Virus record (IMG/VR): IMGVR_UViG_3300037297_000216
From: an uncultured virus (IMG/VR IMGVR_UViG_3300037297_000216)
Lineage: Duplodnaviria; Heunggongvirae; Uroviricota; Caudoviricetes; Crassvirales
DNA length: 64,000 bases
Direction: 5' to 3' (one strand)
Positions 678-50,814 of the stretch are shown one piece after another (the stretch's first letter is position 1; each line of letters starts with the position of its first letter). The notes under the pieces were generated by a model. The model was not told where the DNA came from and made no database searches. It saw only the letters and a list, made by a program, of their open reading frames with translations. Both the position numbers and the translations under genes were made by a program.

Positions 678-1369
678 ATTTTATCTTTTTTATAATCAAA
701 ATGCCCAACCAGTACACGATTATCACACGCTATTTTAAATCCTTCTTTTACAGCTCTATGATAAAAATAAAAATCCTGAGTTAAAGTTCTAGTACCTTCA
801 GGAGTATCCTCTTGTATAGTTTTAAACCAAGGACTTTCCATCTTCTTAAACATATCTAACTTAAAAAGATTAAACCCCATTCCTAAAGCCTTACATTCTT
901 GAACTTCTCCCGGCTTAGGAATAAGAGGAGTATTACTTTCACCAAATATCATAGGAAAACCATTATCTCCTTTACTCCAATATAATCCCCCAACCACATC
1001 ATACTTATCTATATTTTCATATAATTTAAGTAATCCATCTGGAGGAGGAATATTATCTTCCTCTATAGTTAAGATATATTTAAAATTCTTTAAATAATTA
1101 TTATTAAGTATATACTCAATCATAGTATTATAAGCCACATCTACTTTCATACTTTCTGCAAATATAGGGCCAACTACTTTTTGATTAACAGGTTTCATTA
1201 AATTCATCCATGATTGGACAACTCTTGTAGGAAACATTCCCCTCGTTGGACATATTATTATAGTAGACAAATCTTCATATGCTTTGGATTTATCTATTCT
1301 TTCTATAGACTTCTCTAAGTCTGAATTATGTTCCCCAACGGTATTACCAATTATTATTTTAGGTTCCAT
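671..1369 (-). CDS. GT-A fold (GT2-like) glycosyltransferase
   Basis: IIICPTRG N-terminal strand, LTIEEDN (DxD-like), DVVGGLY, GMGFNL, TQDFYF, C-terminal VGH. Confidence 0.75.
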   Translation of the reverse strand: MEPKIIIGNTVGEHNSDLEKSIERIDKSKAYEDLSTIIICPTRGMFPTRVVQSWMNLMKPVNQKVVGPIFAESMKVDVAYNTMIEYILNNNYLKNFKYILTIEEDNIPPPDGLLKLYENIDKYDVVGGLYWSKGDNGFPMIFGESNTPLIPKPGEVQECKALGMGFNLFKLDMFKKMESPWFKTIQEDTPEGTRTLTQDFYFYHRAVKEGFKIACDNRVLVGHFDYKKDKIW

Positions 1370-1384
1370 ACATATTATAAATAA

Positions 1385-1414
1385 GGGGTAAAGTTCCTTA
1401 TCAGAACTTACCCC
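1385..1414 (-). terminator. Intrinsic terminator-like hairpin upstream of the GT/MT pair
   Basis: ggggtaaagttc/gaacttacccc inverted repeat followed by T-rich tract on the minus strand. Confidence 0.55.
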
Positions 1415-1425
1415 AAATATTAATC

Positions 1426-1827
1426 TTAATCGTGATCAGGACAATATAAATATTCTACATAAAAATCATAATCTGCTGTAACAGCTGAACTAGCACTACT
1501 AGAAGCTATCAACAAATTAACATTTCCACCAGTACCTATATACATTCCACCTGTAGTAAGTAAAGTAATATCTTTACCTACTGTTTGTGCAGGAAGTAAA
1601 GAAATATTAGTTGTAACACCAATAGCAATACTACCTACCCTTGGCTGAACTGTTTGAGCACAACTATTTAAATCTACTACGTCACCAGCCATTACTTTTA
1701 TACCAGTAACAATAGCGCCTGCAGGAATATAAGTATCAGTATCTACATAAGTTGTAGAGTTAGTAACACTTGGAATGGTTATATTCCCAAAAGCAACTCG
1801 TCTTACAATAAATTGATTATTAGCCAT
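1426..1827 (-). CDS. Probable small virion structural/decoration protein
   Basis: 133 aa, Thr/Ser/Gly/Val-rich beta-type composition, inside virion gene block. Confidence 0.45.
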   Translation of the reverse strand: MANNQFIVRRVAFGNITIPSVTNSTTYVDTDTYIPAGAIVTGIKVMAGDVVDLNSCAQTVQPRVGSIAIGVTTNISLLPAQTVGKDITLLTTGGMYIGTGGNVNLLIASSSASSAVTADYDFYVEYLYCPDHD

Positions 1828-4420: not shown

Positions 4421-5268
4421 TATTTTACTTTACCTATTTTTATTTCTTCATCATCTTTATTGACCTCTTCAGTCCTTAAAGATTTCTTTATTTCCTTATC
4501 TACACTTGCTTTTCCATAAACAGCTTTTTTACCATCTATTTGAGATAATATAGCTATCTTTAAATCCTGATTTTTAGGATTCTTCAAATAATCTACAGCA
4601 TCTTCTAATGTATGCCCTATTATATCTGTTCCATACTTATAAATAGTTTTACTTTTCCTAATAATGTTATTAGCAGCCGCTTCTTCAATAAGAAAATATA
4701 TATCTTTATCTTTATTATCTACCCAAATTTTTAAAAACTCTTGAGGCCTCTCTTCAACTATTTTATACAGCATATCTTCAACTATCTCATTTGCAACATT
4801 TTCTGCATTAAATCCAAATAATCTCAAAGCTTTTCTCATTTCACCAAGAGTAAGCTTATCAAACTCTTGAATAGCTTTACGTTTTGTTCTATTTCGTACA
4901 TTTGCTTCCTTAGCTTCCGACTCTTCTTCAATTAGTTGAAAATCAGCACCAGCTTTAATCCTAGCGCCTGTTGAAACTCTCCTATGATTTTTTAAATGTA
5001 GATATTTTAATTTTTCCTCAGGACCTACTTCAGTATCTATAATAACATCTTTATCTGTTACTCTAATACCAAAATTATCCCAAAATTCTGAATTAGGCTT
5101 TAAATCTACGCCTAAAGCCTTACTTAATTCTTCCTCATCTAATTCACTTAAACCAGTATACCTTTTCCCACTCCTAGTAAGATAAGGTCCTACAACATAA
5201 GCACAATTAGGATATCTATTCCAACCCGAAAATGTATTTTTATTTATTGGGCGTAAAACAACTTTCAT
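4420..5268 (-). CDS. Conserved crAss protein immediately downstream of MCP
   Basis: 282 aa; synteny; C-terminal IGHTLEDAVDYLKNPKNQD segment. Confidence 0.6.
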   Translation of the reverse strand: MKVVLRPINKNTFSGWNRYPNCAYVVGPYLTRSGKRYTGLSELDEEELSKALGVDLKPNSEFWDNFGIRVTDKDVIIDTEVGPEEKLKYLHLKNHRRVSTGARIKAGADFQLIEEESEAKEANVRNRTKRKAIQEFDKLTLGEMRKALRLFGFNAENVANEIVEDMLYKIVEERPQEFLKIWVDNKDKDIYFLIEEAAANNIIRKSKTIYKYGTDIIGHTLEDAVDYLKNPKNQDLKIAILSQIDGKKAVYGKASVDKEIKKSLRTEEVNKDDEEIKIGKVK

Positions 5269-5313
5269 ATTCTTTAGTTTAGAAATTCATTAAACTAGTT
5301 TTAAAAAATAAAC

Positions 5314-5341
5314 AAGGGTTGATTTAACGGGCTCAACCCTT
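5314..5341 (-). terminator. Intrinsic terminator after major capsid gene
   Basis: aagggttga/tcaaccctt stem followed by T-tract on minus strand. Confidence 0.6.
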
Positions 5342-5376
5342 AAAACCTTTACAGATTATATACCAAAGGTATATAA

Positions 5377-6861
5377 TTAATCAACATCTAAAATAAGTTC
5401 ACCACTAGTCGTAGGATCTTTTAACATTATACCCATTTCACCTAAGAAATGAACAGTATAACCATCATAACCATTAGAACGAACTGTTGACCTATTATTA
5501 GAAAAACCTTGTCCGGGAGCAACAGCGCCAGCTACTGACCACATAACCATTTCACGGCCTTTTCGAACAACTTTAACAATATTAGACTCGCCGTCCCTCA
5601 TACTCATATCAACAAAAGTCATACGGTATGATTCTACAGGTTTACCGGAAGTTGGGTGTAATTTCCTACCATGATATAAACTATCATATAATGGAAAATG
5701 TTTAAGTGTTAATACAACACCATTTAACATATTCCAAGTAGTAAACTGTCCTCCAAATGTTAAATTCTGACCTGTACCAGTAACAAATTTAGTATCAATG
5801 AGGGTATAACCTGAAGCTTTTGCTTTTAACACCCTATCTAATTCTTTCATACCCATTTCGCCTGTAAGAGCTACATACCTTCGCTCATTCATACCTCGAA
5901 TATTATATGAAAGATCAGTTAAGAAGTCTTCTAACAAATCATCAGTCAACTTAGTATAAGTTCTTTTATTAGCAGGAGATATTTGCTGTAATAACCCCGC
6001 ACCCAGATACACAGGTCTTCCTGAAGTACCTTTTAACGGAGTAGTTCCATCAGGCCTAGCATTATACCTACTATACACTAATTGATAATCTACTGTCCTA
6101 TACCATTGACGCAAAGCCAACCACTCTTGGTAATCTGTCCAATAACGAGTTGACTTTTTAGTTTTTGGATCCCTCATTTCAATAATCATAACTGAAGCAG
6201 CAGCGCTACCAGTTATGTCATATTTCAACCTCATGGTTGTCAAATGATTACGAAGTTTAACAGGAGCTTGATAACTGATTATATCAGCTTCATAACTTCC
6301 TTCTTCATAAGCAGATCCTACCCTACTTAATTGTTTTCCATCAGCCAGTAAGGAAGGAGGTATATAAGAAGTAGACTGACTATCAGCTACTTGAAGAGTA
6401 TACACCCAGTCATGTCCATCTTGATAGGGTTCCCCCATTACTCTAGCTTGATATTCTTTATCATCAAATTCAACAATCGCACCTGGACCAAAGGCCCTCT
6501 CACTTACCCATACTTGAATAGGAGTACCATTAATACCAGGAACATCAGTAGAACTGATAGAAGATCCTTGCCATTTAGCATCCTTAATAGTTATAGCTTT
6601 ATCAGCTTCAACCATAGCAGACCATTCAAACTCTCTATTTTCTATAGTCAACGTACGTCCCAAACCTCCAGTTAAGAAATCAACTGAACTCTGTTGATCC
6701 ATAGTACCAAATATATATGATAGTACATTAGAAACCACATGGGGCTTAACTAAAAGAGCTTGAGATAACATATTTTCATCAGTTAACCCATGAAAATATT
6801 TAGTACGGTATAGTTGCAATCCATTAAGAATAGTATTTTGCATTCCATACACATTAGCCAT
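5377..6861 (-). CDS. Major capsid protein (crAss-like, HK97 fold)
   Basis: 494 aa; LRNHLTTMR..YDITGSA, GAGLLQQI, LTGEMGM, FGGQF, LKHFPLYD, HPTSGKPVESYR motifs; synteny terminase-portal-scaffold-MCP. Confidence 0.9.
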   Translation of the reverse strand: MANVYGMQNTILNGLQLYRTKYFHGLTDENMLSQALLVKPHVVSNVLSYIFGTMDQQSSVDFLTGGLGRTLTIENREFEWSAMVEADKAITIKDAKWQGSSISSTDVPGINGTPIQVWVSERAFGPGAIVEFDDKEYQARVMGEPYQDGHDWVYTLQVADSQSTSYIPPSLLADGKQLSRVGSAYEEGSYEADIISYQAPVKLRNHLTTMRLKYDITGSAAASVMIIEMRDPKTKKSTRYWTDYQEWLALRQWYRTVDYQLVYSRYNARPDGTTPLKGTSGRPVYLGAGLLQQISPANKRTYTKLTDDLLEDFLTDLSYNIRGMNERRYVALTGEMGMKELDRVLKAKASGYTLIDTKFVTGTGQNLTFGGQFTTWNMLNGVVLTLKHFPLYDSLYHGRKLHPTSGKPVESYRMTFVDMSMRDGESNIVKVVRKGREMVMWSVAGAVAPGQGFSNNRSTVRSNGYDGYTVHFLGEMGIMLKDPTTSGELILDVD

Positions 6862-6886: not shown

Positions 6887-8107
6887 TTAAAAATTTGGTT
6901 TGGAAAGTTGACTAGAAAATTTATCAAAAATACTATAATCAACTGAAGATTCTCCACCAGAACCTTCATCTTCCATTCCTTTTATTCTCTTAGTTCTCAT
7001 TTCTAATTTTCTCTTAAGATCTTTTGCTGCTTTACTACCAGCTTTTTTGTCTAATTCTGTAATCAATTTATCCCCTTTCATAGTAAAGAAAACTGACTCA
7101 ACAAAGTTCTTAACAAGAGAATTAGTATATTCTTTTTGGTATTTCGTTTTTCCATCAGCCTCTGGTCTAAGCCCATAAGCTAAAATAGCATTTTTATCTG
7201 CCTTACTTAAAGAAATGCCTTTAATATCTTTTAAACTATTTACATAAGATTGTACGTCTGACAAAAACTTATGTTGCTGTTTCCGAGTCTCCTCCTGAAA
7301 TTTTTCTTGTTCCTGTAATAGCTTTTCTGACTTGCTTTTTCTGTAACCTTTTAAAAACTCAGCTGCTTCTTCTGCCTCTTCTTTCAATATTCCTGTATCT
7401 CTATACCTCTCGATACGCTTTCCTATCTTATTACCATCATGTCCTTGTACAGATAAAGATTCTCGAATAGTAAGAACTTGATTAGCCTCATTTTCTAAAT
7501 CAATATTTTCTAAATCAACACCAGAATAAATTTGCTCATAATACTTTTTCAAATCTCCCCCATTACTTACAAACTCATTTAAAGCTGCAACATCTTCATT
7601 AGCAAACTCTGGCTCAGAATTTTCATCAACAACTTTACTAATAAATTCCACTACATCTTCTATAGATTCAAATTTCTTTTCATCTTCACTTAATTCCCAA
7701 CCAAATTTATCATATAATTTTTCTTGTACGTATGCAGAAATTTCAGGTTCTGCTTCCCTCATTTCAAAGTCATCCTCAGAAGAATCCTCTAAATCTTCTT
7801 TAGCATCTTCCTCCTCCTCTTCATCTATTTTATCTTTAAATTTTATACTTGGCTGTTCAACAAAATCCTTTACTTTTGAATCTTTTTTCTCTTTATCCTC
7901 ATCTTTTTCATCTTTTGAAGACTCTTCTTCTTCCTCTTCAATTTCCTCAAGTTCTTCATCTTCTATATCTTCTCTTGGACCGTCTTCAATAGGAAAATCT
8001 TTTTCACCAATATTTGGGTCAAACTCTTGTTGTCCTTTAGAAAGAACTCCAGCAATTGCTTCAAATCCTCCAAATATGTCATCTTTACTACTCATAATAT
8101 TTAACAT
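6887..8107 (-). CDS. Acidic scaffold-like protein upstream of MCP
   Basis: Very D/E-rich N-half, coiled-coil C-half, directly upstream of MCP. Confidence 0.6.
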   Translation of the reverse strand: MLNIMSSKDDIFGGFEAIAGVLSKGQQEFDPNIGEKDFPIEDGPREDIEDEELEEIEEEEEESSKDEKDEDKEKKDSKVKDFVEQPSIKFKDKIDEEEEEDAKEDLEDSSEDDFEMREAEPEISAYVQEKLYDKFGWELSEDEKKFESIEDVVEFISKVVDENSEPEFANEDVAALNEFVSNGGDLKKYYEQIYSGVDLENIDLENEANQVLTIRESLSVQGHDGNKIGKRIERYRDTGILKEEAEEAAEFLKGYRKSKSEKLLQEQEKFQEETRKQQHKFLSDVQSYVNSLKDIKGISLSKADKNAILAYGLRPEADGKTKYQKEYTNSLVKNFVESVFFTMKGDKLITELDKKAGSKAAKDLKRKLEMRTKRIKGMEDEGSGGESSVDYSIFDKFSSQLSKPNF

Positions 8108-36958: not shown

Positions 36959-37618
36959 ATGAAAAAAGAGATAATTGCTTGTCTAGCAATTCTTTTATTA
37001 CAAACTAACCCAATTTTAATTTCAAAAAAAATAAACAACGAAACAAAACAACTAACTTTCAAAGAAGCATTTAAAAATCAATTAGAATTACTTATCAAAG
37101 AAGAAAATGAGAGTTGGTATTTAAGAGATAGAAAATTAGATAAGTATTTTGGTGAAAAAGAGAGACAAAGAGTAAGAGAAATATCAAAAAAATTAGGAAT
37201 TGAACCTCAATGGCTTTACGAAGTAATTTGGTATGAATCACGAGGTAATCCTCAAGCTGTTAATTATCAAAAAGGTGATAATTTAAATCCAGAAATACGA
37301 TGTAAAAAACGTGCAACAGGATTAATTCAATTTTTACCAAAAACATCTAAAAGATTAGGTACTTCAAATATAAAAATATATAATATGACTGTATTAGAAC
37401 AGTTGGATTATGTAGAAAAATATTTGAAAAAATGTGATGATAAATATAACTTAGAATCATATATTGATACTTATTTGGCTGTTTTTCACCCTATCGCATT
37501 AGGTAATAAACATATAGTTGTATCTGGTAAAGGTGCAGAACAAAATCCTAATGTTGACATTAATAAAGATGGTATCATAACTATCAAAGAATTTACAGAA
37601 TATGCAAACAAATCATAA
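36959..37618 (+). CDS. Lytic transglycosylase (SLT-like) with signal peptide and C-terminal EF-hand-like loop
   Basis: IWYESRGNPQAVN catalytic Glu, ATGLIQF, EQLDYVEKY, QNPNVDINKDGIIT. Confidence 0.85.
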   Translation: MKKEIIACLAILLLQTNPILISKKINNETKQLTFKEAFKNQLELLIKEENESWYLRDRKLDKYFGEKERQRVREISKKLGIEPQWLYEVIWYESRGNPQAVNYQKGDNLNPEIRCKKRATGLIQFLPKTSKRLGTSNIKIYNMTVLEQLDYVEKYLKKCDDKYNLESYIDTYLAVFHPIALGNKHIVVSGKGAEQNPNVDINKDGIITIKEFTEYANKS

Positions 37619-37629
37619 ATCAAAATAAA

Positions 37630-38079
37630 ATGTTACTTTTAAATAAAATTTTTAAAAAGAAAAATAAAATTTTGCTTAAAGAAGCTTTGAAAATAAAAGA
37701 AGATCTTTTTCATCAAATAGGAAAACTTGAAAAAAGTTTAGCTTATTATAATAAAACACAAAAAGAAAAAGAAAGAGAAGAAGCCTTTTCTCAATTAGAA
37801 CAAATAGCAAAAAAATATTCAAAAATATGTAAAATAATATTAAAAGCTAACTTAAAAAGTGGGCAAAATGAATATATAAAACTTCGTGAACTGTTAAATA
37901 GGAGAAAATATATATTATTAGAAATGCCAAGTGGATGTTGGATTCCTAATCCATATTATTCTCCTTTATCAAAAAAACTAATACCTGTACAAAATGTTAT
38001 ACTTAAAACAAAAGAACAGTTAAAAGAAGTTTCAAAGAAACAAGAGGAAATTAACAATAAATATTATGTAAAAATATGA
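37630..38079 (+). CDS. Hypothetical coiled-coil protein
   Basis: 149 aa ORF, ATGA overlap with RNR. Confidence 0.55.
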   Translation: MLLLNKIFKKKNKILLKEALKIKEDLFHQIGKLEKSLAYYNKTQKEKEREEAFSQLEQIAKKYSKICKIILKANLKSGQNEYIKLRELLNRRKYILLEMPSGCWIPNPYYSPLSKKLIPVQNVILKTKEQLKEVSKKQEEINNKYYVKI

Positions 38080-39030
38080 TAGAAAATAAGTTAGGTGAAG
38101 GGGTAGAAAAAACTACCCCTACTTTCTTCACAAGGGAAGAAGTTTATGAACAAACTTTAAAATATTTTGATGATGATAAACTGTTAACTGATATTTGGGG
38201 GGATAAGTATTGTCTTAAAGACTTACAAGGTAATTATTTAGAATTAACTCCAGATGATATGCATAGAAGACTAACCAAAGAATTTGTTAGAATTGAACAG
38301 AAATATAAAAACTCATTAAATGAACAAGAAATTTATGATTTGTTGGTCAATTTCGGTTATATTATTCCTGGAGGTAGTATTTTATATGGAGCGGGAAATA
38401 ACTACTCCTTTAGTTCGCTTGGCAACTGCTTTGTCATCGGGAACAATAGTGACTCTTATGGCGGAATATGTCAAACTGACCAAGAACAAACCCAACTAAT
38501 GAAGCGTCGGGCAGGTGTGGGTCACGATATATCCCATTTAAGGCCATTTTTAGCCCCTGTAACAAACGCAGCAGGCACTTCTAGTGGTATAGTACCATTT
38601 ATGGAAAGATACTCTAATACGACACGTGAAGTAGCTCAGGATAACCGTAGGGGAGCACTAATGTTAACACTTGATATTAATCATCCACAAATATATGATT
38701 TCATAGAAGCAAAAACTGATTTAACAAAGATAACAGGTGCTAATATATCAGTTAAGATTACTGATGAATTTATGAAAGCTGTTGAAAATGATGAAGATTA
38801 TATTTTATATTTTGACAGAAATGGAAATTTTAAAGAAAGAGATATAAATCATAAACTTGAACTATATAAAGATACTTACTTTAAAATTAAAGCTAAACCT
38901 TTATGGAATAAATTAATTCATCAAGCTTGGAAAACAGCGGAACCAGGTGTATTATTTCGGGATAAAATTAAATCTGAATCCATACCTAGTTGTTATGGAG
39001 AAGAATGGGAAGAAACGAGTACTAATCCGT
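38076..39030 (+). CDS. nrdJ: Class II (AdoCbl-dependent) ribonucleotide reductase, exon 1
   Basis: PGGS, SLGNCFV, RRAGVG, RRGALM, ITGANISV, AEPG, ends STNP+T. Confidence 0.9.
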
Positions 39031-39042
39031 AAACTAAACATT

Positions 39043-39210
39043 ATGATAACATATGAAGAACTTTCTTTTAAAGAAAAAACAGAATTTAGAAAAAAATTAA
39101 TGTCAGAAGAAGGATTAAAACAATTTGCAAGAAATATAAAAGAATATAAAGAAGGTTGGAGATGTGTGAAATGTACATGGCCATCTCATATGTGTACTTG
39201 TAATGAATAA
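39043..39210 (+). CDS. Intron-borne small ORF 1 (55 aa, CxxC..HxCxC)
   Basis: In P1 loop; A-rich leader. Confidence 0.6.
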   Translation: MITYEELSFKEKTEFRKKLMSEEGLKQFARNIKEYKEGWRCVKCTWPSHMCTCNE

Positions 39211-39267
39211 AATCCATGCGGATGAAAAATCTCTTCTAATTGTGTTTTAAACTATAAATAATCAAAA

Positions 39268-39381
39268 ATGTCAAACGAAAAATTTACCTTATTAATTGCA
39301 GCAATATCTTTTATAGGAGGTTTATTCTTTGGATATCATTTTCCTAAGAATGAATCAGAAAACGATAACTTGGAAGGCTAA
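39268..39381 (+). CDS. Intron-borne small ORF 2 (37 aa, single TM-like)
   Basis: MSNEKFTLLIAAISFIGGLFFGYHFPKNESENDNLEG. Confidence 0.55.
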   Translation: MSNEKFTLLIAAISFIGGLFFGYHFPKNESENDNLEG

Positions 39382-39423
39382 TTACAAGCCGACAGGGCGC
39401 AAGCAAACTTAAAATTTAAAAAT

Positions 39424-39600
39424 ATGATAATAAAAAATATTGAAGATTTATTAGAGCACTTATTAATATGGGAAGAACAAGGTTTCTTGATTAAAGAAGC
39501 TAAAGAAGTTGTGCAGCGTGAGAGGGTAAACGAAGAGACTACTATAGAGGATAAAGATCAATATAATTATTATCCAGAAGATAATTATGATCTTTGGTAG
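39424..39600 (+). CDS. Intron-borne small ORF 3 (58 aa, acidic), overlaps ribozyme core
   Basis: MIIKNIEDLLEHLLIWEEQGFLIKEAKEVVQRERVNEETTIEDKDQYNYYPEDNYDLW. Confidence 0.5.
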   Translation: MIIKNIEDLLEHLLIWEEQGFLIKEAKEVVQRERVNEETTIEDKDQYNYYPEDNYDLW

Positions 39601-39641
39601 TAGATGCGGTGCTCCAAATTAATAAATGAAATGTAATTGAA

Positions 39642-39818
39642 ATGATAAAAGTAAAACAAAAATTCGGAGATAATTCTCTTAGTGAAGAATATTTTATTAA
39701 AGAAGAAGAATTAGAATTAATTAGAATTGGAAATTTGTATTGGGCAAATAGATTATGGTTATACAAAAATAATAAACCTAACCATGTAGCTCATATAAAT
39801 ACATTAATTTTTGTTTAA
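39642..39818 (+). CDS. Intron-borne small ORF 4 (58 aa)
   Basis: Enclosed by the 10-bp P9 stem; stop codon abuts the 3' strand. Confidence 0.6.
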   Translation: MIKVKQKFGDNSLSEEYFIKEEELELIRIGNLYWANRLWLYKNNKPNHVAHINTLIFV

Positions 39819-39832
39819 CATTTATTAACAAG

Positions 39833-41526
39833 GTGGTGAAATTCCACTCTGTCCTTACGATAGTTGTAGGTTAATGAGTGTGAATTTGTACTCGTTTGTA
39901 GAAAACCCATTTACAGACAAAGCTTTTTTTAACTATGATAAATTTAAAGACGTAGTGTATAAAGCACAACGTTTAATGGATGATGTTGTAGATTTAGAAG
40001 AAGAGAAAATTAATAAAATACTTAATAAAATTGAAAACGATCCAGAACCTGAAGAAATTAAGAAGATTGAGAAAGACTTATGGACTAAAATCAAAGGAAA
40101 ATTACTCTCCGGTAGACGTACTGGTCTTTCTGCTATTGGTCTTGCTGATTGTTTGGCTGCTCTCAATGTTACCTATGGATCTGAAGATTCTATAAAATTA
40201 GTAGAAAAAATATACAAACAATTTGCTATATCTGCTTATAAAAGTAGTATAGATATGGCTAAAGAAAGAGGAGCTTTTCCTATTCATAATATTGAACTAG
40301 AAAAAGAAAATCCTTTTTTGAAAAGATTTTGGAAAGAAGTAGGACAAAATGAAATATCAAATGCCAAAACAGATATAAAAATTGGATTTGGATTTTCTAA
40401 AGAAGATAAAGAACAAACTTATCTTTGGAAATATAAAGAATATGGACGTAGAAATATTGCTTTATTAACTATACCGCCATCAGGCACAATAAGTCAAATG
40501 GCAAGTATATCTTCAGGTATAGAGCCTGTTTATCAATTATTACACAAAAGACGATATAAAATATTAGGAGATCAAGAATATGACTATGTTGATAAAACTG
40601 GTGATAAATGGCGTGAATATACTGTATTACATCCTAAATTTAAAGAATGGTTTGATATATGGGGAAAACCAAAAGATGTGGTCAATCCTACTATTGAAGA
40701 ACTTAATAAACTAAATCTATGGAATACTTTTAGACAATATGGTAATATTACAAATCTTGAAACTTTCATAAAAATATCTCCTTATTATAATTCTACAGCA
40801 TATGAAATAGATCCTATACAAAGAGTTAAATTACAAGCTACTATTCAGAAATGGATTGATCACAGCATAAGCTCAACAATTAACTTACCTAAATCAGCTA
40901 CAGAAGAAGAAGTGTCTAATCTTTATATAGAAGCATGGAAACAAGGTTGTAAAGGTATAACCATCTATCGTGATGGTTGTAGAGAAGGAATATTAACATC
41001 AATTAATCAAAAAGATACAGAATTCAAACAACATGATGCTCCTAAAAGACCTAAATCTTTGCCTTGTAATATTCATTCTACTACAATTAAAGGAGAAGGT
41101 TTTTACGTACTAATAGGCTTATATGAAAATAAACCTTATGAAGTGTTTGTTATTAGAAAAGATATTCATTATTTTACTGAAAAAGAAGGTATTATTTCAA
41201 AATTAAATAAAAAACAGTATGATATTCAACAAAAAGATTCTGAAGTAGGCTGGATAATGACAGAAGCTTTATCAGATAATGAAGCTACTATAACTAGATT
41301 AGTATCAACTGCTTTAAGACATGGTACTGATATAAAATTTATAACGGAACAGCTTAATAAAACTCAAGGAGATCTTACTAATTTTGGTAAAGCAATAGCA
41401 AGAGTATTATCAAAATATATTAAAAAAGAAACAGGATTAGAATGTCCAGAATGTAAACAAAATACATTAATAAGAGAATCAGGTTGTATAAAATGTACGA
41501 ATTGTGGTTATTCTAAATGCAATTAA
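39833..41526 (+). CDS. nrdJ: Class II RNR, exon 2 (spliced product 882 aa) with C-terminal TSCPD-like domain and Zn ribbon
   Basis: GEIPLCPYDSCRL, RRTGL, TIPPSGT, SSGIEP, QKWIDHSISSTINL, GCKGITIYRDG, APKRP, CPEC..C..CGYSKC. Confidence 0.92.
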
Positions 41527-41527
41527 T

Positions 41528-41881
41528 ATGAGAATGTGGATGATAAATCCTAAAATGTTATGTGATAAGCATTTATTAGGTGAATATGCAGAAATATTTA
41601 AACATCGACATAATTTTGTTAAACAACATTCTATTAAAGGACGTATTGGACAAATAGAACCTTTACAAATGAGTAAACGAGTTGAAGAATTACGACAAGA
41701 AGGTCTTAAACGAGGATTCAAAATGAATGCTATTTATACAATGCCGAATTTAAATTATTTATCAAATGAAGAAAAAAATTCAAAAGTAGATATAAATAAA
41801 TCTATTAATGATTTATCCATAAGATGTACAAAATGCAACAAATTAATAAATAAATATAAAAATGAAAAAAAAAGTTTATAA
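41528..41881 (+). CDS. denV: Pyrimidine dimer DNA glycosylase / endonuclease V family
   Basis: MRMW.INP.MLCDKHLLGEY.EI, ELRQEGLKRGF. Confidence 0.8.
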   Translation: MRMWMINPKMLCDKHLLGEYAEIFKHRHNFVKQHSIKGRIGQIEPLQMSKRVEELRQEGLKRGFKMNAIYTMPNLNYLSNEEKNSKVDINKSINDLSIRCTKCNKLINKYKNEKKSL

Positions 41882-42036
41882 CCAAAAAGAGTCTTATATT
41901 CTTAGAGAAACAGCTAAAAAACTTTATAAAGGAGAAATTTTATGTACTATTACTGATATAGTAAATACAAAAATTTATTTAACAATATTAGATAAGGATT
42001 ATGAAATAACCATAAGAGAAATGTCTTAGCATTAAA

Positions 42037-49644: not shown

Positions 49645-50814
49645 ATGATGAAAACAAAATTTAAAGAAATTCCAAAACATATAGATAAAAAAGAAGGGTT
49701 ATGTTGTTTCAATAAAAATTTAGATAAATTGGACAAAGTATCTCTATTAAAAAATAATTTTGTGTTAGAAGAAAAGGATGATTATATAAATATATACTTT
49801 ACTAAAAAAAGTAATTTTAATATATTTAAAGATTATAAGAACTTTTACTATATGGATGGATTTAGCCCAAATTTGAACAAAGAACTCCATATAGGACATT
49901 TTTCTAATTTAATAATTGCAAAAGCTCTACAAAAATTAGGCATCGTAAAAAAGACTATTTCAATGCTTGGGGATACTTTAGAAGGAAATATCTCAAATAA
50001 AGAAGGTTTTAGATTATTCAAAAATATAATAAAAACTTTTAACTATAAAGTAAGCAGAATATTTTTTGCATCAAAACTGAAATATCAAGGAAAACTTGAA
50101 GAAGGTAAAGGTAAATATGAAGGTACTAAAATATTTGATACTAATGAAGAATTAATTGTCGCAATAAAAAAAGACGGTACAACTTCATATACTTATCATG
50201 ATATTGCTTTGGCAAAAAAACTAGTTAAGGACACATTGTATTTGACTGGATATGAACAAAAAGAACACTTTAATAAAATAAAAAAAGTATTTAAAAATGT
50301 ACATCATTTTCCTTTAGGGTTGGTAAAAATATCTAATTCAAAAATGTCAACGAGAGAAGGAAATATAATATTAATAAAAGATATTCTAGATGAACTTAAT
50401 AAAACTTTTAAAAATAATAAGTTAAGTTACAATGTTTTTGCAGGATATATTTTAAAGTCTTCTCCAAATACAGATAAAAACATAAATATAAAAAATATTT
50501 ATAATTATAAAAATTCCCCTGGTTTGTACTTAAGTTATACAACAGCAAGGTTATTAAGTGCGGGATGTAAAATACTTCCATTTAAGATAACAAATAATAA
50601 ATTATTAGAATATTATTTTATACTATCTAAAAATGAACTTAATCCTTCATTATTATTCAATAAATTAATAGACTGTTGTAAAACTTTAAATACATTATAT
50701 GAAACAATAAAAATAAAAGGTAATTTAAAAAATAAAATAAATATGTCCATCAAGCTAACAGAATTAAATTATTATATGAAAAAAATAGGTTTATACTTAA
50801 TTAAAAAGGTATAA
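49645..50814 (+). CDS. Shortened arginyl-tRNA synthetase-like protein
   Basis: FSPNLNKELHIGH, KDGTTSYTYHDIA, YLTGYEQKEHF, KMSTREGN, PGLYLSYTTAR. Confidence 0.8.
   Translation: MMKTKFKEIPKHIDKKEGLCCFNKNLDKLDKVSLLKNNFVLEEKDDYINIYFTKKSNFNIFKDYKNFYYMDGFSPNLNKELHIGHFSNLIIAKALQKLGIVKKTISMLGDTLEGNISNKEGFRLFKNIIKTFNYKVSRIFFASKLKYQGKLEEGKGKYEGTKIFDTNEELIVAIKKDGTTSYTYHDIALAKKLVKDTLYLTGYEQKEHFNKIKKVFKNVHHFPLGLVKISNSKMSTREGNIILIKDILDELNKTFKNNKLSYNVFAGYILKSSPNTDKNINIKNIYNYKNSPGLYLSYTTARLLSAGCKILPFKITNNKLLEYYFILSKNELNPSLLFNKLIDCCKTLNTLYETIKIKGNLKNKINMSIKLTELNYYMKKIGLYLIKKV

Follow-up and report, generated by a model that had tools for sequence, protein, structure and literature searches.

Four small open reading frames as probable passengers of a group-I-type intron in the catalytic cysteine codon of a crAss-like phage ribonucleotide reductase gene

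Group I introns usually consist of a ribozyme with or without a single homing-endonuclease gene. Phage T4 has three such introns, in td, nrdB and nrdD (sunY), with I-TevI, I-TevII and I-TevIII, and the fungal mitochondrial mL2449 group I intron hosts rps3. The splitting of phage ribonucleotide reductase (RNR) genes by introns and inteins is well documented, including the T4 nrdB and nrdD intron cases (PMC3653736). PMC11835236 describes group I introns with multiple homing-endonuclease genes in an intron database that screened only open reading frames (ORFs) of at least 120 amino acids (aa) and regarded the presence of several endonuclease genes in a single intron as previously unreported. For Bacteroides phages, the Jug phage study gives metatranscriptome reads supporting splicing for 37 of 76 predicted introns (PMC7886860, PMC12880540). 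Here we describe an 802-nucleotide (nt) insert, at positions 39031-39832 of a 64,000-nt stretch (hereafter the window) of the uncultured Crassvirales virus record IMGVR_UViG_3300037297_000216, which interrupts an RNR gene, has the structural features of a group I intron and holds four small ORFs.

Like the T4 introns, this insert lies in a conserved catalytic region of a phage nucleotide-metabolism gene, brings an in-frame stop at its start and has its ORFs in peripheral loops; unlike them, each with one endonuclease ORF, it carries four non-endonuclease ORFs, one in the joining segment between helices P3 and P4 (J3/4), and its core is unrecognised by Rfam model RF00028. With the introns of crAss-like or 'Jug' Bacteroides phages it shares an AT-rich phage genome, a host devoid of Shine-Dalgarno (SD) sequences, a small size, a position in a core gene and inteins as alternative invaders, whereas several small non-endonuclease ORFs per intron are not described in those accounts, supplements aside (PMC7886860, PMC12880540). 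The organellar cases, with rps3 or endonucleases, resemble it in that a group I intron houses a host gene or multiple ORFs, and differ in that the window intron is phage-borne and that its ORFs are of 37-58 aa and are exchanged between loops by related copies. A partial literature search, supplements not covered, returned no phage group I intron reported to hold several small ORFs other than endonuclease genes.

We consider it probable, from the sequence comparisons below, that the insert is a group-I-type intron at the RNR Cys codon with four expressed passenger ORFs in a mobile, hard-to-delete carrier. A phage intron lineage would then maintain, within a ribozyme that looks functional, a number of small and exchangeable ORFs that appear to be coding. 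If this is true, phages would be carrying and trading accessory genes by way of introns, a route so far overlooked, the annotation of small proteins within introns would have to be revised, and the tolerance of a group I core for J3/4 insertion would interest ribozyme engineers. The gene, the insert and its ORFs are as follows, with P denoting paired regions.

38076-39030, plus strand: exon 1 of the RNR gene (class II, NrdJ-like, B12-type), ending ...ACT AAT CCG T, that is TNP and the first base (T) of the Cys codon
39031-39832, plus strand: group-I-type intron (predicted), 802 nt, with G39832, its last base, as the terminal (omega) G
39833-41526, plus strand: RNR exon 2, beginning GT GGT GAA (C-G-E)
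39030/39833: predicted exon junction, ...AATCCGT joined to GTGGTGAA
39043-39210, plus strand: ORF1, 55 aa, in the P1 loop
39268-39381, plus strand: ORF2, 37 aa, in the J3/4 insert and running into the P4 and P5 5' strands
39424-39600, plus strand: ORF3, 58 aa, acidic, starting in the P6a loop, with its stop TAG in the P8 3' strand
39642-39818, plus strand: ORF4, 58 aa, in the P9 loop

Joining 39030 to 39833 rebuilds TNP-C-GE, with the catalytic Cys codon split after its first base, and the Pfam barrel-domain profile Ribonuc_red_lgC is contiguous across the gap, matching at profile positions 3-196 upstream and 214-523 downstream. The TAA at 39030-39032 ends the exon-1 frame at the splice site, the insert has stops in the exon frame from its first codon, and the earliest in-frame start in exon 2 is ATG 39874, 14 codons downstream of the split. 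Because of the exon-1 stop and the lack of an exon-2 start before 39874, an active RNR would need the 802 bases to be taken out at the RNA level. Two other arrangements do not fit: an intein is contradicted by the exon-1 frame stop at 39030-39032, and a genes-in-pieces RNR of the Aeh1 nrdA type by the division of the Cys codon between the halves and the late exon-2 start. The exons give a ratio of nonsynonymous to synonymous substitution rates (dN/dS) of 0.19-0.33 at dS of about 1 when the window is compared with loci L001 and L070, a comparison between two intron-bearing lineages. The nearest DNA matches of the gene come from crAss-like Bacteroides phages and bear the annotation 'vitamin B12-dependent ribonucleotide reductase'.

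Comparison with 31 related RNR loci found the Cys codon uninterrupted in 22 and an in-frame insert starting at Cys in six. Three of these six were scanned with Pfam; Intein_splicing scored above the cut-off in L008 and L009 and 0.7 bit short of it in L003, which also has a LAGLIDADG_3 domain. One locus, L001, carries the same intron as the window, with identical first and last bases, and another, L010, reaches its contig end 15 bases past the Cys codon. On this comparison the RNR Cys codon is a target for mobile elements, and the inteins at this codon share the target of the window insert but, unlike it, are removed at the protein level. L007, the last of the 31 loci, has a different insert (4850-6066) 5 bases downstream of the window site, with an exon ending ...TGTGGT and an insert ending in G, and a second insertion (6982-7882) later in the same RNR gene.

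For the ribozyme, a family was recruited from viral contigs with a 16-base core motif common to the window and L001, together with a guide-sequence pattern. Typical members are about 200 nt long; many occupy the same site in diverse RNR genes (NP/C, the slash marking the intron), and others lie in other phage genes, for example L048. We aligned 40 distinct compact cores, for which RNAalifold gave P3, P4, P5, P6 and P8, and P7 was then added as a pseudoknot. Over the 31 pairs of P3-P8, including the P3/P7 pseudoknot, 99.2% of alignment cells are paired and 23 pairs show both-side (compensatory) changes, whereas none of 500 shuffles scored as high and partners slid by 1-3 columns pair at 39-49%. 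The helix order, P3 (P4 P5 P5' P4' P6 P6') P7 P3' P8 P8' P7', is the group I topology; the terminal U of the 5' exon is paired to a G of the guide just upstream of P3, and the introns end in G. On these structural grounds the family is filed as group-I-type.

The window intron has the core, helices, splice geometry and NP/C site (AAUCCGU, guide GCGGAU) of compact members such as L045, L059, L047 and L067 (IMG/VR) and CRP-118; unlike these, which are of about 200 nt and either lack ORFs or have one GIY-YIG ORF in P8, it measures 802 nt and has four loop ORFs. In the wider family an intron usually has no ORF or a single one, of about 200 aa, in P8. Eleven of 22 such P8 ORFs were tested, with GIY-YIG above the Pfam cut-off in six and sub-threshold in one. 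In L090, L126 and L129 the longest GIY-YIG frame runs upstream through the ribozyme core, as ORF3 does, which may reflect TTG or GTG start calls. The elements of the window copy are given below.

39025-39030, plus strand: P1 5' strand AUCCGU, pairing with 39218-39223, with U39030.G39218 at the exon end; the same pairing occurs in family members
39214-39223, plus strand: internal guide sequence CCAU-GCGGAU (CCAUGCGGAU), 39218-39223 forming P1 and 39214-39217 forming P10
39833-39836 (GUGG, exon 2) with 39214-39217 (CCAU): P10
39230-39236 UCUCUUC with 39532-39538 GAAGAGA, plus strand: P3, 7 of 7 pairs
39243-39367, plus strand: J3/4 insert, 125 nt, closed by UGUUUU 39243-39248 and AAAACG 39359-39364
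39369-39372 CUUG with 39393-39396 CAGG: P4, 4 of 4 pairs
39376-39379 GGCU with 39387-39390 AGCC: P5, 4 of 4 pairs, J4/5 being A-rich
39397-39400 GCGC with 39516-39519 GCGU: P6, 4 of 4 pairs
39403-39410 with 39506-39514: P6a; P6 and P6a (39397-39519) enclose the ORF3 start and first 27 codons
39522-39528 G(A)GGGUA with 39610-39615 UGCUCC: P7, 6 of 6 pairs, with the bulged A kept
39539-39603: P8 hairpin, CUACUA/UAGUAG (39539-39544 and 39598-39603) and an inner stem AAAGAUC/GAUCUUU
39604-39615, plus strand: J8/7 AUGCGG and the P7 3' strand UGCUCC
39619-39628 with 39819-39828, plus strand: P9, a stem of 10 base pairs (bp) that encloses ORF4 and is kept in relatives whatever the enclosed ORF

The guide block is identical in L001 and L070-L075, and P2 is missing from the window copy. 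The window P7 differs from the family consensus by two G.U pairs and one compensatory swap of C-G to G-C, and P6 is compensated within the sublineage (GCGC/GCGU, GGGC/GCCU, GCUG/CAGU). An automated check of the window counted 27 of 31 pairs, the remaining four (one in P6a, three in P8) being a trimming artefact: rescored by mapped coordinates they pair, and folding reproduces the P6/P6a and P8 stems. The P8 hairpin folds with a z-score of -3.33 (none of 200 shuffles gives as stable a fold); for the J3/4 insert and P6, folding recovers the closing stems with z-scores of -1.19 and -1.39, which are not significant. In the 40-core alignment J3/4 is nearly invariant, and an insert there occurs only in the window, L070 and L074 among 95 anchor rows (duplicates and the false positive L054 included), each time closed by a terminal stem; it is absent from L001, L071, L072, L073 and L075. 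From the compensatory changes in P6 and the dN/dS of the RNR exons we infer that the intron splices, and these data suggest that ribozyme and host gene are still under selection. The first-pass annotation had called the insert a group I intron, and the call stands on P1 with its U.G pair, P10, the terminal G, the covarying P3-P8 and the P3/P7 pseudoknot, while agreement with RF00028 is missing. The lowest-energy fold of the P9 region pairs 39642-39666 with 39806-39828, an alternative to the conserved 10-bp P9 stem in which the first 8 codons of ORF4, AUG included, are paired to the P9 3' strand and to the final codons of the same ORF.

The four ORFs begin with ATG, lie on one strand and cover 636 of the 802 nt, with gaps of 12, 57, 42 and 41 nt, in agreement with the near-tiling and the sizes first reported. 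Dinucleotide-preserving shuffles (n=2000) gave on average 0.44 ORFs of 35 aa or more, and four ORFs or 636 nt of cover were attained in none of them. The A-rich leaders noticed earlier were also borne out: the 20 nt ahead of each ORF contain 45-65% A, like the phage's own genes, whose long ORFs (n=47) have a mean of 53%, against 37% for all ATGs of the window. An SD-like core precedes none of the 47 long phage ORFs. The first-pass annotation saw no homing endonuclease in the insert, and this was upheld by Pfam and PHROGs searches in which the four ORFs matched no family, endonucleases included; the related introns do carry LAGLIDADG genes. Its placement of three ORFs proved right, since P1 (39025-39030/39218-39223) encloses ORF1, the P6 loop holds the ORF3 start, from which the frame reads P6', J6/7, P7, P3' and most of P8, and the 10-bp P9 stem (39619-39628/39819-39828) encloses ORF4. 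ORF2, which it had put between the P4 and P5 strands, has to be moved, because alignment to the ribozyme family places it in the J3/4 insert, between P3 and P4.

ORF1 consists of a long helix and a C-x2-C-x4-H-x-C-x-C end. Aligned with a 55-aa ORF of L074, it shows 73% identity over 55 of 55 codons and a dN/dS of 0.28, with every Cys and His kept; this homologue lies at L074 825-992, in the P9 loop and not in the P1 loop. A third member, also of 55 aa with the same Cys/His end, was detected at an expectation value (E) of 9e-15 in a profile search of 1.84 billion representatives. A search of 5.8 billion proteins returned only ORF1 itself, the three-member alignment found no relative among 177 pattern matches in viral contigs, and an ESM Atlas features search gave scores below 0.9. 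The AlphaFold model, one long helix with a mean predicted local distance difference test score (pLDDT) of 68.9, is too weak for a fold search. ORF1 is very likely a real small protein, predicted to bind zinc. DNA similarity between ORF1 and L074 extends no more than 3 bases beyond the ATG on one side and the stop on the other, as if the ORF had moved as a unit.

The frame of ORF3 is open through the core in all seven loci in which the region is visible (window, L001, L070, L071, L072, L074 and L075), and by this comparison ORF3 represents a read-through frame conserved across the intron lineage. DNA runs X2 and X3 and protein P0006 have 63 extra bases (21 codons, in frame) at 39471/39472, making the window ORF3 a deletion variant, and one sibling is a recombinant with a window-type N-terminus and an L070-type zinc-ribbon tail. 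In L071 a LAGLIDADG domain is fused to the ORF3-type frame; the window ORF3 has neither a nuclease domain nor the zinc ribbon. ORF2 has a single 20-residue hydrophobic stretch, and its last codons and stop overlap the 5' strands of P4 and P5. Both ORF2 and ORF4, for which an Atlas search gave no usable match, are plausible genes, unsupported beyond their open frames and leaders. Looking up each peptide thus produced a family for ORF1 and a sublineage frame for ORF3, and for ORF2 and ORF4 nothing beyond near-identical siblings. A DNA contig of run X2 lacks precisely 39243-39367, and its P1 loop, which is very short, and its upstream exon end both differ from those of the window; it is a relative's intron without the ORF2 cassette.

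To compare cargo across orthologous introns, as had been proposed, we aligned eight introns of the AT-rich sublineage, namely the window copy and seven relatives (L001 and L070-L075), and found different ORFs in the same slots. The P1 slot holds six unrelated contents (the window type, an L001/L075 type, and those of L070, L073, L074 and L072), the J3/4 slot three and the P9 slot five. The P1 ORFs of the L001/L075 type have a dN/dS of 0.34. LAGLIDADG_2 matches occur at three positions: the P6 loop (L071), the J8/7-P7 boundary (L001) and the P9 region (L075). L072 is near-identical to L001 in exon 1 and ORF3, yet has a different P1 loop, which contains a 386-aa ORF (1327-2487) with HIGH- and KMSKS-like motifs. 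This ORF has 63% identity over 388 aa (E 5e-168) to a free-standing window gene (49645-50814, plus strand, 389 aa) that contains a Pfam class I tRNA-synthetase ArgRS-type catalytic domain (40.5 bits, cut-off 23.3). As these comparisons have it, the slot contents exchanged between related introns include ordinary phage genes and LAGLIDADG endonucleases. The earlier idea of a cargo platform is borne out in part: slots are refilled with different ORFs in seven related introns, the ORF1 family recurs in another loop and L072 carries a 386-aa gene. In L001 the 211-aa LAGLIDADG gene (5555-6215) sits at the J8/7-P7 boundary in an insert closed by a stem of 9-11 bp and flanked by a short repeated AUAGU, which creates two alternative P7 3' strands.

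These observations are consistent with a model in which the guide CCAUGCGGAU would pair with the end of exon 1 (P1, with U.G at the splice site) and with the start of exon 2 (P10), the core P3-P8 would fold with the P3/P7 pseudoknot, and excision at G39832 would rebuild TNPCGE. The AT-rich sublineage would have opened four positions, the P1 loop, the J3/4 insert, the region from P6 to P8 and the P9 loop, into long loops closed by stems, with one same-strand ORF in each behind an A-rich leader of the phage type, and the window copy would currently be without an endonuclease of its own. More tentatively, the intron lineage could be a modular gene carrier, a proposal to which we give clearly less credence than to the probable reading above. 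In such a carrier, four to five stem-closed slots, one of them in the normally invariant J3/4, would take up and exchange ORF-sized cassettes and move them between slots and phages; the cassettes would include small zinc-binding peptides, endonucleases and, at the upper end, a tRNA-synthetase-like phage gene of full size. Homing into an active-site codon would give spread and protection from deletion, and cargo translation would compete with folding, timing RNR maturation.

That translation may gate splicing, and with it dNTP supply, had also been put forward in the first-pass annotation. The ORF1 stop lies 4 nt upstream of the guide sequence, ORF3 covers P6' through P8, and the stop of ORF4 directly precedes the P9 3' strand, leaving 14 nt to the 3' splice site. 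Ribosomes unwind the RNA that they read, and given these overlaps of ORFs with ribozyme strands, translation and a folded core should exclude each other on one RNA. Work on T4 introns has connected translation with splicing. That translation gates splicing here is plausible on physical grounds and is offered as speculation.

Several results weigh against a working intron with expressed passengers and bear on the explanations that compete with it. As to the ORFs, codon-usage log-likelihood is non-discriminating, since the four ORFs look gene-like and so does a 74-aa ORF on the minus strand; the missing Pfam or PHROGs family match for any of the four counts in the same direction. ORF2, at 37 aa too short for homology search, has no homologues beyond near-identical siblings, the sole homologue of ORF4 is one sibling of 98% identity, and the dN/dS of ORF3 against its relatives is 0.7-0.8, a value difficult to interpret, since the conserved middle of ORF3 coincides with the ribozyme core and RNA constraint acts on these bases too. 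The lack of wider homologues for ORF2 and ORF4, the ORF3 ratio, the near-tiling with its short gaps and the fast turnover of slots whose frames stay open would all fit an intron that is real but whose ORFs are kept merely as open frames, with ribosomes covering the 800 nt, under coupled transcription and translation, until they are folded, against premature termination or decay, while the content drifts and swaps. We think this unlikely, given that the ORF1 family keeps a dN/dS of 0.28, invariant Cys/His and a fixed 55 aa in three members, that the L001/L075 P1 ORFs stand at 0.34 and the L072 slot holds a full-size conserved gene, and that compact members of about 200 nt imply that the ribozyme itself needs no ORFs. 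Relatives with LAGLIDADG genes, the L071 domain in frame with an ORF3-type read-through frame and a C-terminal zinc-ribbon tail, and a window ORF3 that has no zinc ribbon and a 63-nt deletion relative to siblings would instead suit debris of one or more decayed homing-endonuclease genes in an immobile relic. The first-pass annotation had itself raised such fragments as a way to overturn its view, and we regard them as improbable: BLASTP (E<=0.01) matched none of the ORFs to the LAGLIDADG ORFs of L001, L071 and L075, no endonuclease hidden Markov model matched any of them, ORF1, which is under purifying selection, has no relatives among endonucleases, and four separate intact ATG ORFs with gene-like leaders are unlike frameshift decay.

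As to the ribozyme, RF00028 did not match the window at its gathering score, nor 38900-39950 at E up to 10, where Rfam gave only chance-level matches to unrelated families, and it found no family intron in 14 loci at gathering score or in 8 compact members at E<=1. The tool was working, because a different, canonical group I intron in L045 was found at 114.6 bits, and a large ribozyme family is missed by the current Rfam model. Our own covariance model of the family, R1, was strong only on relatives without the J3/4 insert (L071, E 3e-8; L075, 5e-8; L001, 1.7e-7), with the 3' half of the alignment forced even there, and on the window it found only a 28-nt P4-P5 piece (E 0.042), because the inserts break the model apart. 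The 125-nt J3/4 insert, the two P7 G.U pairs and the 187-nt P1 loop could weaken catalysis. The RNA data came from two metatranscriptome runs, available as contigs and covering only pieces of 39819-40194; they contain no spliced joint across the intron, and one 151-nt RNA-library contig (39819-39969) spans the 3' splice site unspliced. The unusual core insertions and the absence of spliced RNA from those contigs, together with the existence of split but functional phage RNRs (PMC3653736), could indicate an insert that no longer splices, leaving the RNR dead or made in two pieces, each a polypeptide of its own, as with the split nrdA of Aeromonas phage Aeh1. This is very improbable: a second polypeptide starting at 39874 would miss the active-site C, G and E, neither exon is broken and purifying selection acts on both at dS of about 1, and P6 and P7 show compensatory changes. 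A splicing-competent intron with expressed passengers is, among these explanations, the one that we favour.

The window contains the tailed-phage genes for portal protein, large terminase, major head protein and DNA polymerase (PHROGs), and its G+C content varies from about 20 to 45% across 37000-42000 in the composition profile. An alternative genetic code was ruled out, with TAA, TGA and TAG used as stops 55, 11 and 7 times among 73 ORFs of at least 100 aa; a tRNA search of the window found none, and table 11 is a good fit for reading the genome. Some RNR genes of the ribozyme family are interrupted more than once: the RNR gene of L045 has its canonical intron (1335-1557, minus strand) about 450 bases downstream of a family intron, and L046 and L057 each have two family introns about 350-470 bases apart. 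Roseobacter phage CRP-118 (OR420741.1; L158) has a compact, unannotated family member at 2501-2710 and its RNR is listed as two coding sequences (gp44 and gp45), so that in at least one isolate genome the family leaves an RNR gene annotated as two fragments.

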